From the sequence record NC_041874.1: DNA of 49,628 nucleotides. One strand, given 5' to 3'. The DNA comes from Escherichia phage JMPW1. The position numbers and the translations under genes are program-made. Below, piece after piece: positions 1-3,956 of this stretch (positions are counted from its first letter, which is position 1; each line of letters opens with the position of its first letter). The notes under the pieces are model-generated. The model was not told where the DNA came from. It searched no databases and was given only the letters and a program-made list of their open reading frames with translations.

Positions 1-102
1 ATTGCATGGTTTGCAACAGTTGGTTGATTTGTTGCTTAGATTGCAATGATTGTGAGAGGGGGGGATCTAGTGTTGCCCGGTTCGCCTGGTAGTCATCTCC
101 AT

Positions 103-121
103 TTTTAGCAAAAAGTGCTAT
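103..121 (-). promoter_or_regulatory. Conserved box, minus orientation (reads ATAGCACTTTTTGCTAAAA on - strand), at left genome end
   Basis: Plus-strand TTTTAGCAAAAAGTGCTAT matches the box family found at about 25 gene boundaries. Confidence 0.4.
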
Positions 122-136
122 CGATTACACTTTACC

Positions 137-165
137 TTGTCACAGATGTAATATTTGTCTAGAAT
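137..165 (+). promoter_or_regulatory. Sigma70-type promoter TTGTCA-17 bp-TAGAAT
   Basis: -35 TTGTCA at 137-142, 17-nt spacer, -10 TAGAAT at 160-165, read directly. Confidence 0.5.
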
Positions 166-225
166 CGCACTTGTGACAAAATTACACACTGTGACGCCTC
201 TAAATATACATATAGATATATGTAT

Positions 226-242
226 CTATATAATATATATAG
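226..242. repeat. 17-bp AT-rich motif CTATATAATATATATAG, copy 1 (exact second copy at 30755-30771)
   Basis: Identical 17-mer read in both AT-rich control regions. Confidence 0.7.
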
Positions 243-524
243 TGTTTTCTTTATTTATATATATAGATAATTATATTGTAATAGTTGTGTATAGTTGTCT
301 TACATTGTCTAGCGTACTGTTGGCATATTTCTATCTGCATGTTTATATATACAGTACTTTTTTGAGAGCTATATATTTCTATAGTGACTCTAGACAGCTA
401 GACAAATGTTACACAGCTTAATATCGGCTCGCAGTCATTGACAGCTCTGTATCGCACTGTCACAATGTCAATTGTTGACACATTATGACGCCATTTACAC
501 ACGAATAGACAAAGAGGATATATT

Positions 525-1040
525 ATGAGCAATACCAATCAGGAATTAAAAATCACCGATATGATTCGACTAACCTGCGATGCAATGTATCGCGACAAAG
601 GCATGAATGAGTTCTCTTTCGTGGCTGATGATATGGCCCTCGAGGCCGCGCGATTCTACTTCCGTGACCAGGAGGTAAGTGATAGCGATCTTGAATCTGC
701 CGCTGCCGGATGGGTGGACCAGAACCAGGGTGAGGTGGAGAAGCGATTCAAGTCTGCTTTCATTACGCCAATCATTACCCGGCACTTTTGCAAGTATGGC
801 AAGGTGGCAAAGGTGAAGGTAGGCCGGAATGACGCTGCAATCACAATGATAACGGTTATCGTTACCGACGAAGAGATTCCCGTGAAGAAGCGCCGCAGTC
901 GGAAGAAAGTTAGCCTGGCCGATTGCCTGGATTCGTTTGTGGTTGATGTGGGTAAACTGGCTGATAGCGAATTGATGACTCGTGACGTAAACGAGATCGT
1001 TCGCCAGATGAAGGCGCATATCGAAAAGTGTGGACTGTAA
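525..1040 (+). CDS. hypothetical early protein (171 aa)
   Basis: ORF with RBS AAAGAGGA 9 nt upstream of ATG; first gene after left control region. Confidence 0.6.
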   Translation: MSNTNQELKITDMIRLTCDAMYRDKGMNEFSFVADDMALEAARFYFRDQEVSDSDLESAAAGWVDQNQGEVEKRFKSAFITPIITRHFCKYGKVAKVKVGRNDAAITMITVIVTDEEIPVKKRRSRKKVSLADCLDSFVVDVGKLADSELMTRDVNEIVRQMKAHIEKCGL

Positions 1041-1054
1041 GCACTGAGCGGTAA

Positions 1055-1104
1055 ATAGCACTTTTTGTTAAAACCGGATCGGGATAACGCGGTATAGTTA
1101 TCCC
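1055..1104 (+). promoter_or_regulatory. Early promoter cassette: box + inverted repeat GGGATAAC/GTTATCCC enclosing -10 TATAGT
   Basis: Box ATAGCACTTTTTGTTAAAAC at 1055-1074; IR 1081-1104; -10 at 1093-1098. Confidence 0.6.
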
Positions 1105-1129
1105 ATCAACAACGAATGAGAAAACGAAG

Positions 1130-1324
1130 ATGGAAACGCAAATTGACGTAGTGGTTGTTCAGCGAGACTCAACTCATGAAAAGGGTCTGTTTAAGAAGGG
1201 AACGGAAATCACGATCGACCTTGAGGATATGGTTGCTTATCACTCTGGACTTACCTGGAACGTGGTGCGCGTAGGCAGCGACTATAAACTCAAAGGCTTT
1301 AACACTTACTTTGCAGAGGCTTAA
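1130..1324 (+). CDS. hypothetical small protein (64 aa)
   Basis: ORF downstream of cassette with RBS GAGAAAACGAAG. Confidence 0.5.
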   Translation: METQIDVVVVQRDSTHEKGLFKKGTEITIDLEDMVAYHSGLTWNVVRVGSDYKLKGFNTYFAEA

Positions 1325-1326
1325 TC

Positions 1327-1797
1327 ATGACAACCATTACCGTATTTCTGGCTAAAGATGAGATTGATGGCGAAATGTCATTCTTCGCATTTGAGCACAA
1401 AACCGGATCGCACTGGCATATGTATAGCCGCTACACGGTTATCGATATCAACTCATACCGCGCAGGCTCACTTACTGAAAAGCTGGGTTGCTTCATTGGA
1501 GCTATCAAGGTGAACAATGGCTGCGAGTGGGCAGATGAGCACGAAGAGCGCCGCATGTGCAATATGATTAACCCGGTCTATCTTGAGTCGTTCGAGCTTG
1601 ATGCTGATGTGAACATTAAGGTGAGAAAGTCTGGTGAGTTATTGCCAGGGATGCGTGTGCTGACTGGTTACTCGGGCCGTAAGGTGTGGCGCACCGTATC
1701 GAAGATTCGCCAGCGTTCTGCAACATGCTACAGCGTATTCTTTGAAGATGGCTGGAATATGATGTCCGGTAGTGAGGTGAAGTATCTCACCAAATAG
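1327..1797 (+). CDS. hypothetical protein (156 aa)
   Basis: ORF; its TAG stop is the TAG of the next box. Confidence 0.55.
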   Translation: MTTITVFLAKDEIDGEMSFFAFEHKTGSHWHMYSRYTVIDINSYRAGSLTEKLGCFIGAIKVNNGCEWADEHEERRMCNMINPVYLESFELDADVNIKVRKSGELLPGMRVLTGYSGRKVWRTVSKIRQRSATCYSVFFEDGWNMMSGSEVKYLTK

Positions 1798-1843
1798 CAC
1801 GAATTGTTAAAACCGGATCGGGGTATCTTGCTATAGTTACCCC
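1794..1843 (+). promoter_or_regulatory. Early promoter cassette: box + IR GGGGTA/TACCCC enclosing -10 TATAGT
   Basis: Box ATAGCACGAATTGTTAAAAC 1794-1813; IR 1820-1843; CCAATCAGAGGA RBS follows. Confidence 0.6.
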
Positions 1844-1875
1844 ATCGAAACGAGATACCAATCAGAGGAATAACC

Positions 1876-2106
1876 ATGTCAATCGTCAAGAACCAGCAAG
1901 CAATCGATTAAACCAATAACAACCGCTTTGCTATTTTCATCACATCGATAGGTCGCCGATTTGCAGTCAAAGCCGTTCCGGGTGGATACAAAACCTACAT
2001 GGAAGATAAAGGAAAGTGGGTGTGGTGCGAAAACCTTGCAAACTTCCTAGTCTGGAATGCAGACCTCCAGGGCTTTGATGATATCAGCACCTTAATTGAG
2101 GAATAA
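1876..2106 (+). pseudogene. Small gene with in-frame TAA at codon 12 (1909-1911); frame continues open to 2106
   Basis: ATG 1876 sits behind a full cassette and RBS; same frame reopens after TAA and runs to TAA at 2104-2106. Confidence 0.3.
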
Positions 2107-2112
2107 ATAATT

Positions 2113-2340
2113 ATGCCACGTTACAATAAACAGACTAAACTCACCCGCGTAAACGGGCACATGATTCCGGCTGAATCCACTCACTACGCAATGGGCGCAA
2201 AGCACGGAGTCTATTTCAAGTGGCGCGGTCAATGGAACTTCACGGCGGTTAGTAATTTCTACATGCGCGTCCCAGGTATTGACCCGCAGACGGTCGTAGA
2301 GGACTCAATCGGCAACAACAAGATCGAGGTGCTAAAATGA
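2113..2340 (+). CDS. hypothetical protein (75 aa)
   Basis: ORF with RBS GAGGAATAAATAATTATG. Confidence 0.5.
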   Translation: MPRYNKQTKLTRVNGHMIPAESTHYAMGAKHGVYFKWRGQWNFTAVSNFYMRVPGIDPQTVVEDSIGNNKIEVLK

Positions 2341-2447
2341 ACTTCAATACAATTGCTTTATGGTCTGCCGTCTGGTTCTTCTGTATGGGTCATGTCATGG
2401 TTGGAATCGTAGTTATGCTGCTACTGTGTGCGGGAGCGTTCGAATGA
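2337..2447 (+). CDS. putative small hydrophobic membrane peptide (36 aa)
   Basis: ATG overlaps upstream stop (ATGA); translation MNFNTIALWSAVWFFCMGHVMVGIVVMLLLCAGAFE is one TM-like segment. Confidence 0.35.
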   Translation: MNFNTIALWSAVWFFCMGHVMVGIVVMLLLCAGAFE

Positions 2448-2617
2448 TGCGCATTCTGATTTGCATGATGGCGGCGGTCGCACTGGCTATCCTGGTAGTG
2501 TCCGGCTGCGGAGAGGCCAAAGAGCGATGCCATGAAACCGGAAACCAGGTTACTACTTTCGTGATGGTTGGCAACGTATTGCTACCAATCACATCAAATG
2601 AAATCACTTGCGAATAG
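2444..2617 (+). CDS. putative small lipoprotein (57 aa)
   Basis: Signal-peptide-like N-terminus ending in lipobox LVVSGC; start overlaps stop of preceding peptide. Confidence 0.4.
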   Translation: MMRILICMMAAVALAILVVSGCGEAKERCHETGNQVTTFVMVGNVLLPITSNEITCE

Positions 2618-2626
2618 GATGTTAAA

Positions 2627-2818
2627 ATGGCTGATTTTATGCACCAAATGATTGCAGTATTCAAAGGTAGTGATGACCAGGAGGTGAAAGAGTGCTTTAC
2701 TGTAGACAAGCCTTATAGCGCATCGCTAACCAGCTTCGGGAATATCTCATTGCTTGATGATAACGGCGACCCCTGGGTATTCGACGAAGACACTGATTGC
2801 TTCGAAATTAAAGAATAG
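2627..2818 (+). CDS. small highly acidic protein (63 aa)
   Basis: ORF rich in D/E; stop TAG shared with next box. Confidence 0.5.
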   Translation: MADFMHQMIAVFKGSDDQEVKECFTVDKPYSASLTSFGNISLLDDNGDPWVFDEDTDCFEIKE

Positions 2819-2864
2819 CACTTTTTGTTAAAACTCAATATCGGGGTTGCGCTATAGTAACCCC
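2815..2864 (+). promoter_or_regulatory. Early promoter cassette: box + IR GGGGTT/AACCCC enclosing -10 TATAGT
   Basis: Box 2815-2834; IR 2843-2864; -10 2853-2858. Confidence 0.6.
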
Positions 2865-2889
2865 ATCGACAACAAACGAGGACACTAAC

Positions 2890-3378
2890 ATGAAAATCAA
2901 ATTGCTTTGCACTGGCGGTTACAAGGGCTTTACTCGCGACCTGGAAGCGGATCCTATCGTGATTGATGCGGTGAAGTGTGATGATAGCCTCGGCGGCTAC
3001 CGCGTGAAGGTTGACGACCTGGTGAAAGCTGGCGTGTACGATCTGGGCTATGGACTTTCGGTTAGCCCGGTAGTTGGTCCGGCAGACTTCAACGAGAAGG
3101 ATGGAACGATGTTCTTCTTCGAATGGGAAGTCCAGGCAAATCCTAAGCCGCGCAAGGTTCGTCTTCTCAGTAATGGCGGCTACCCGATGCGTCCAGGTTA
3201 TGAGAATCGCACATTCCCGGTTATCGTTGACTTTGAAGAAATCACCGCACACTTAGCTTATATCAACGGTGAACAGCTTCATGCTGTTGGATTCGTGGGA
3301 TGTATGAATCAAGAGGCGCTATGCTTCTTCCATTGTAAAGCCGAGCCGTTCGATATTGAGTGCGAGTTAGTATACTAA
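2890..3378 (+). CDS. hypothetical protein (162 aa)
   Basis: ORF after cassette; stop TAA is first codon of next box (TAAGCAC). Confidence 0.55.
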   Translation: MKIKLLCTGGYKGFTRDLEADPIVIDAVKCDDSLGGYRVKVDDLVKAGVYDLGYGLSVSPVVGPADFNEKDGTMFFFEWEVQANPKPRKVRLLSNGGYPMRPGYENRTFPVIVDFEEITAHLAYINGEQLHAVGFVGCMNQEALCFFHCKAEPFDIECELVY

Positions 3379-3423
3379 GCACGAATTGTTAAAAGGGGAT
3401 TTGGCCTGACTGGTATAATCCCC
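3376..3423 (+). promoter_or_regulatory. Early promoter cassette: box + IR GGGGAT/ATCCCC enclosing -10 TATAAT
   Basis: Box TAAGCACGAATTGTTAAAA 3376-3394; IR 3395-3423; -10 3414-3419. Confidence 0.6.
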
Positions 3424-3449
3424 GCATAAACCACTAAGAGGAAAGCATC

Positions 3450-3956
3450 ATGTTAAAATTAGAAGACGTAAAATTCCCGATTAAATTTATCAGCCTAGGT
3501 TGCGGTGAAATTACATTCACCAGTGAAGATAAAGGCAAGTGGGACAATGATAAAATGTCTCAGCTTAAGTTGGATTGGTTTATCAATCGGCACAATGAAG
3601 TAAATCCTGAAAACTCAGCCAAGAAGGATTACCATTACATTATTAGTGGTAGTCAGGATGCGTACGAAAAGTATGATGGTTGGAAAATTGTTCGATCAAT
3701 CTTCCACCCCGCAAAGCCAGAAATTAAACCGATGTTACAATGCGCTCAGATCGAGAACATTCCATTGAGCGCGACGCTAAAAGGAGTGCAGCTTGATGAT
3801 AAATCCTGGCTTGAAATAACCGCCACGCCGAAAACTATTGAAGTGCACGACGATATCGTCACTCTTCTATTGCATTACGGCAGCTTTAAGCACAAAGCGG
3901 TATCAGGTGAAATCAGCATTAAGCGCGGAACACTTGTGCGCTATGAGGTGAAATAA
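3450..3956 (+). CDS. hypothetical protein (168 aa)
   Basis: ORF with RBS AAGAGGAAAG. Confidence 0.55.
   Translation: MLKLEDVKFPIKFISLGCGEITFTSEDKGKWDNDKMSQLKLDWFINRHNEVNPENSAKKDYHYIISGSQDAYEKYDGWKIVRSIFHPAKPEIKPMLQCAQIENIPLSATLKGVQLDDKSWLEITATPKTIEVHDDIVTLLLHYGSFKHKAVSGEISIKRGTLVRYEVK

Follow-up and report, generated by a model that had tools for sequence, protein, structure and literature searches.

The closest described counterpart of the locus analyzed here is ORF75 of phage T1 (CPTT1_003/ST75; AAP49925.1, YP_003869.1), which encodes a 76-amino-acid (aa) hypothetical protein in the left-end gene block of T1-like phages. Annotated genes for 76-aa hypothetical proteins of the same family are found in SH2, ISF002, Chapo, and Shfl1. 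Warwickvirus phages possess a 75-aa variant of the ORF75 homolog, and variants of 86 to 87 aa, alike at their N and C termini, occur in Webervirus and other Tunavirus phages. A second system relevant to the fate of this gene is gp54 of phage Bas11, a small non-essential protein that directly activates the defense protein CapRelSJ46 and that is knocked out by a W43* stop, promoter mutations, or deletions under CapRelSJ46 selection (PMC11578894).

The window (i.e., the whole stretch of 49,628 nucleotides that was analyzed) belongs to a T1-like siphophage of the JMPW1 group (Drexlerviridae, Tunavirinae, Tunavirus). It is about 100% identical to vB_EcoS_IME167 and phi2013 over 25 kb and 98% identical to vB_Henu5_2. 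Positions 1876 to 2106 on the plus strand correspond to T1 ORF75 in position and length (231 nt), with a nucleotide identity of 87.5%. They differ from it in that codon 12 is TAA, not TCA, and the 76-aa protein is not encodable. The 231-nt stretch aligns at full length and without gaps with the annotated genes of T1, SH2, ISF002, Chapo, and Shfl1, and nucleotide identities to family members range from 82 to 98% across all 231 nt. With codon 12 repaired, the protein matched phrog_11449 from residue 1 to residue 76 of 76 (E = 4.8e-50); no Pfam family was found for the repaired protein. A search of a large protein collection returned 44 clusters, all on phage-sized or short contigs. Cluster lengths were 76 to 78 aa in 42 of the 44 (exactly 76 aa in 40), and query coverage was at least 99% in 43. 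The locus thus shares with the T1 ORF75 family its full-length similarity and its place after a cassette and before the ORF74/DUF7274 gene, but an unbroken frame of about 76 codons is absent. Because of the TAA at codon 12, we filed it as a pseudogene of the T1 ORF75 family (phrog_11449) and not as a functional member. On the basis of the comparison with relatives described below, positions 1876 to 2106 very probably represent a young pseudogene, i.e., a loss-of-function allele of a dispensable accessory gene that arose through a recent change of Ser12 from TCA to TAA.

Reading from the ATG at 1876 to 1878, the codons of the window are ATG TCA ATC GTC AAG AAC CAG CAA GCA ATC GAT, followed by TAA at 1909 to 1911. 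Beyond this ochre codon, direct reading of the sequence gives 64 open sense codons that close at the TAA at 2104 to 2106, and the translation of the whole stretch is MSIVKNQQAID, a stop, TNNNRFAIFITSIGRRFAVKAVPGGYKTYMEDKGKWVWCENLANFLVWNADLQGFDDISTLIEE, and a second stop. The initial annotation had described a start codon behind a complete cassette and a ribosome-binding site, an ochre codon at codon 12, and 64 further codons in the same frame, and all of these features were recovered. A copy of a 50-nt repeat lies at 1796 to 1845, and a Shine-Dalgarno (SD) motif, AGAGGA (1864 to 1869, plus strand), is located 6 nt before the ATG. The duplex of this motif with the anti-SD sequence amounts to -6.0 kcal/mol, its spacing is the same as that at neighboring genes, and an equivalent ribosome-binding site is annotated in T1. 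Among intact homologs, the first 11 codons showed a pN of 0 and a pS of 0.23, which indicates that the ATG at 1876 is the true start. The description of the locus as an early gene would follow from its position and the promoter-like cassette. The next gene downstream (2113 to 2340, plus strand) is intact; it is the counterpart of T1 ORF74, carries DUF7274, and has its own SD motif (GAGGA, 2098 to 2102).

Judged from the alignments, the open frame after the TAA at 1909 to 1911 is the rest of a conserved 76-codon gene and no chance feature. Intact homologs are under purifying selection, with a pooled pN/pS of 0.145 among 13 distinct sequences, and the family comprises the 44 clusters described above. 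An AlphaFold2 model based on 43 homologs (pLDDT, 90.7; pTM, 0.79) consists of one compact domain with helices at residues 3 to 11 and 55 to 61 and strands at residues 17 to 23, 28 to 34, 37 to 44, 47 to 51, and 62 to 68. According to this model, neither the 11-mer nor a fragment from Met42 onward would hold a folding unit. The residual 11-codon open reading frame (ORF) with its stop (MSIVKNQQAID; 1876 to 1911, plus strand) would contain little beyond the N-terminal helix. The only amino acid change downstream of the stop, N45K, is also seen in an intact homolog (P0018) and is therefore no proof of relaxed constraint in this part. As a separate observation, the homolog of Shigella phage vB_SflS-ISF001 (P0032), which is of intact length, carries T13R, M42K, W48S, V59D, and F67K at otherwise conserved positions; these odd substitutions may be due to relaxed constraint or to errors in the sequence of that genome.

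To survey codon 12, the homologous stretch was pulled from every fetched locus. The codon was TCA (Ser) in 13 of 13 distinct intact homologous sequences, and Ser12 was present in 42 of 43 protein clusters. Apart from the window, TAA at this codon occurred in only five loci of four phages, namely, IME167, phi2013, Henu5_2, and JMPW2 (the last represented twice). The stop is thus derived: all intact relatives have TCA, and TAA is confined to one near-clonal lineage. A protein accession, ALT58208.1, which is a second record of a 35-aa remnant of the gene and apparently derives from JMPW1, suggests that JMPW1 carries the codon 12 TAA too. The alignment and the codon survey together point to a single C-to-A transversion at 1910, which is inherited and has become fixed in one lineage. 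The initial annotation had listed a recent nonsense mutation among its readings and had called for a comparison with related phages; that comparison bears the reading out, with relatives in which codon 12 is TCA and the 76-codon gene is continuous. When collections of metagenome, genome, and viral contigs were scanned by pattern for further alleles, the copies recovered either were intact with TCA or came from genomes already included in the comparison. Two further matches of these scans (L025 and L031) were apparently unrelated.

The TAA allele is both recent and of one origin. JMPW2 has other genes than the window immediately upstream and diverges from it by about 2% further downstream, yet the TAA is common to both, and the two sequences differ at one position over 1903 to 3687. 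This single difference indicates that the allele has one origin and was passed on by descent or recombination. Besides the nonsense change, the window differs from ISF002, its nearest intact relative, by three synonymous changes and one nonsynonymous change; so few further differences indicate that the mutation is recent and that no further decay has yet taken place. At position 1902, the window has A where all five TAA-bearing database sequences have C (GCC to GCA, synonymous, Ala9), and it thus matches none of these sequences exactly at this locus.

The distribution of the allele also bears on the reading that the stop is a sequencing or assembly error and that the true phage has TCA. The TAA carriers were deposited by different groups, and their isolation hosts were BL21(DE3), DH5a, BW25113, and JM110. 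The A at 1910 occurs in at least four other deposited genomes from different groups, including that of JMPW2 with its different upstream gene set. Annotators left the region empty or called a 35-aa ORF, which implies that the stop was present in their assemblies. Ion Torrent errors are mainly homopolymer indels and not C-to-A substitutions, and the change in question is a substitution without a homopolymer indel. In favor of an error, only one base is at stake, and Ion Torrent sequencing was used for JMPW1 and JMPW2 (PMC4919409). Since the identical TAA recurs across independent laboratories and hosts (IME167, phi2013, Henu5_2, and JMPW2), the base is real, and the probability that it is an error is close to nil. 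The carriers are, however, close relatives that share one origin of the allele, and their number attests to the base itself and not to long evolutionary testing of the allele.

The 64 codons downstream of the stop are still open, which is in keeping with a recent event but would likewise be seen if they were still in use. One form of such use would be continued synthesis of the full-length 76-aa protein, with the stop read through in a programmed manner or suppressed by an ochre suppressor of the host. This option, raised in the initial annotation, was not substantiated, and we consider it highly improbable. Some of the isolation hosts do carry suppressors (DH5a and JM110, which we take to be glnV44/supE44), but the supE44 (glnV44) suppressor decodes UAG and not UAA, and we know of no ochre suppressor in BL21(DE3) or BW25113. 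UAA is recognized by both release factors, and of the stop codons it is the one least read through naturally in E. coli. None of the relatives outside the JMPW1/JMPW2 group, the more distant ones included, has the stop, which hence does not mark a conserved recoding site. Neither a stimulatory RNA element nor a dedicated suppressor tRNA was detected: ARAGORN found no tRNA or suppressor tRNA gene in the window, the now-untranslated stretch had no Rfam match at an E value of ≤1, and its predicted fold was not unusual relative to shuffled controls (z = -0.29).

A second form of continued use would be a gene that has been shortened and is not dead, with a functional 35-aa protein made from the ATG at 1999 by de novo initiation or reinitiation. 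The corresponding internal 35-codon ORF (MEDKGKW...; 1999 to 2106, plus strand) belongs to phrog_30837, a PHROG of 35-aa fragments whose existence speaks for such a protein. The ATG at 1999 is the first in-frame start past the stop, none being present in between, and the upstream GGTGG can pair with the anti-SD sequence (-7.0 kcal/mol). In addition, no part of the family is conserved more widely across Drexlerviridae than the C-terminal stretch of about 22 residues (FLVWN..QGFDDISTLIEE). Nevertheless, we regard a functional 35-aa product as very unlikely. The GGTGG motif (1981 to 1985) lies about 13 nt from the ATG, compared with 6 to 8 nt at real starts nearby. It consists of the conserved Gly36-Gly37 codons, which are present in every relative and are not new, and it is predicted to pair with 1995 to 1998 in a 9-bp hairpin, within which the UG of the AUG is also located. 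The start lies 88 nt past the stop, too far for efficient coupling. Nor is the start conserved, with Met42 replaced by I, K, or R in 7 of 43 clusters and by I, L, or R in wider homologs. In the structural model, residue 42 falls within the strand of residues 37 to 44, and a fragment beginning there would lack three of the five strands and would not be an autonomous folding unit.

Database records of this remnant exist as JMPW2_003 (ALT58125.1), ALT58208.1, and XHV15743.1 of Henu5_2. All three are 35 aa long and identical to the translation of window positions 1999 to 2106, and both JMPW2 and Henu5_2 have TAA at codon 12. These entries treat the C-terminal remnant as a gene, whereas the evidence given above points to a gene-caller artifact. 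The 35-aa cluster consists solely of the fragment from TAA-carrying phages plus an unrelated 340-aa protein. In the protein collection, the 35-aa sequence was recorded on only two contigs, a scarcity that is probably explained by the rarity with which gene callers report such short ORFs. The 35-aa coding sequences in JMPW2, Henu5_2, and apparently JMPW1, together with phrog_30837, are thus probably annotation artifacts of an interrupted ORF75. Two further suggestions of the initial annotation can be judged from these results. Reinitiation finds no support in the poor context and variable conservation of the ATG at 1999. The proposed 11-aa peptide does correspond to a short ORF that is present, but this ORF is a by-product of truncation. 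None of the relatives was seen to carry an equivalent independent short gene with its own start, a pattern that would have spoken against a broken gene, and the pseudogene reading stands.

We therefore favor the following course of events for the pseudogene. The C-to-A change at 1910 would have arisen once and recently in a lineage of laboratory-associated T1-like phages now represented by the window, IME167, phi2013, Henu5_2, and JMPW2. Since the promoter-like cassette and the ribosome-binding site are untouched, the mRNA is presumably still made, and initiation at the ATG at 1876 presumably continues. Ribosomes would start there and release an 11-residue peptide at the TAA, the sole product expected to be efficiently translated. 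The remaining 64 codons would stay essentially untranslated, with loss of function as the result, and we infer that no functional product is made from 1876 to 2106. The 201 nt left untranslated lie before the gene at 2113 to 2340, and polarity on this ORF74/DUF7274 gene is conceivable; the C/G ratio of the 201 nt is unremarkable (0.54 to 1.31), without a clear Rho-utilization signal. The phage would tolerate the loss, the gene being dispensable for plaque growth on laboratory E. coli. Indeed, TAA carriers plaque on several laboratory strains, which indicates that ORF75 is dispensable there, and its loss was presumably neutral or mildly advantageous. As such, the locus is a textbook young pseudogene, with no new kind of system or mechanism. 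The TAA allele is already present in several GenBank genomes, though it is not described there as a pseudogene. For annotation, the region is best labeled a T1 ORF75-family pseudogene. The TAA phages offer a natural knockout for studying a conserved small protein of Drexlerviridae.

A second case of ORF75 inactivation was found in Shigella phage vB_SsoS_008 (MK335533.1, 3815 to 4045, unannotated), where the remnant is interrupted by TGA at codon 12 and by TAA at codon 41. The same gene has thus been inactivated at the same codon as in the window. However, the TGA is independent and the inactivation is much older. The remnant has the second stop and a nucleotide identity of 72.8%, and the neighboring ORF74 homolog is without a start. 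In the surrounding region (MK335533.1, 3515 to 4345), the ORF74 homolog lacks both its start and its N terminus, and divergence is seen in the 3' half of the cassette upstream. This joint decay hints that ORF75 and ORF74 form one dispensable functional unit. The coincidence at codon 12 is suggestive at most. TCA is one of the few codons that can become a stop by either of two single-base changes, and ORF75 contains 25 codons that are one step from a stop, with 33 paths in total. If two nonsense hits fell at random, they would coincide in one codon with a probability of about 0.045; allowing for both stops of vB_SsoS_008 raises this to about 0.09.

The independent hit at codon 12 (TCA to TGA) is nonetheless one of the points in favor of an adaptive loss, in which the ORF75 protein is sensed by, or costly under, a host defense or physiology and the nonsense allele is a selected escape in laboratory E. 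coli phages. Additionally, all TAA carriers with a stated host were isolated on laboratory strains, and JMPW1 and JMPW2 came from contaminated experiments (PMC4919409). The gene two positions upstream of the pseudogene belongs to the Gp54 family, of which Bas11 Gp54 triggers CapRelSJ46 and is lost by a premature stop under selection. This upstream gene (1130 to 1324, plus strand) encodes 64 aa and matches the Pfam family PF25180, "Phage antiviral trigger protein Gp54" (E = 5e-36). In the Bas11 W43* allele, as in the one described here, a change of one nucleotide introduces a premature stop into a small accessory protein; the protein belongs to the same gene block in a related phage, which stays viable (PMC11578894). 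The Bas11 allele differs in having a known selective agent and in having been selected in laboratory experiments; moreover, the gp54 and ORF75 proteins are unrelated. Adaptive loss is a proposal about the cause of fixation and does not conflict with the pseudogene reading, but we consider it a minor possibility. The more specific proposal that ORF75 inactivation was selected with the protein acting as a trigger of, or a liability to, a host immunity function met by laboratory T1-like phages is, in our estimation, improbable. If true, it would explain both the nonsense allele in a laboratory-contaminant lineage and the independent stop at the same codon in a Shigella phage, and the ORF75/ORF74 pair would constitute a new trigger or antidefense module of Drexlerviridae.

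The cassette in front of the pseudogene is one of four copies of a 50-nt sequence in the first 3.5 kb of the window (1057 to 1106, 1796 to 1845, 2817 to 2866, and 3378 to 3427). Copy 2 (1796 to 1845, plus strand) ends 30 nt before the ATG at 1876 and is promoter-like, with TATAGT inside an inverted repeat. It is identical in the TAA carriers and SH2 and differs by one base in ISF002, and both SH2 and ISF002 have the intact gene. A simple sigma-70 scan did not call the cassette a promoter because TTGTTA lies 22 nt from TATAGT. By analogy, the cassette may nevertheless act as a promoter. Across the copies, the inverted repeat encloses a -10-like TATAGT or TATAAT, and the conserved TTGTTA 22 nt upstream is too far away for a standard -35 element. 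The arms of the repeat vary yet stay complementary (GGGATAAC/GTTATCCC, GGGGTA/TACCCC, GGGGTT/AACCCC, and GGGGATT/AATCCCC), a pattern of compensation that suggests selection for a hairpin. Such a hairpin might serve as an operator or a processing site, or it might represent an unusual promoter architecture.

The cassettes also coincide with a change of gene content among relatives. JMPW2 (KU194205.1, position 1447) is collinear with the window only from 1793, the start of cassette copy 2, and this makes the cassettes look like module-exchange joints between T1-like phages. Upstream of the joint, JMPW2 has a T1 ORF76-like gene in place of the window genes at 1130 to 1797, and neither JMPW2 nor T1 has a PF25180 gene at the position of window 1130 to 1324. 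In the T1 genome (NC_005833), a 2.8-kb terminal repeat is annotated (repeat_region 1..2800), and it takes in the corresponding left-end block with ORF75. If positions 1 to 2800 of the window are likewise a terminal repeat, the pseudogene would be present twice in virion DNA. Positions 190 to 400 of the window, which precede the first ORF (525), are very AT rich, with TATA/ATAT-type repeats and no plausible gene, and may represent a packaging or replication-related region.
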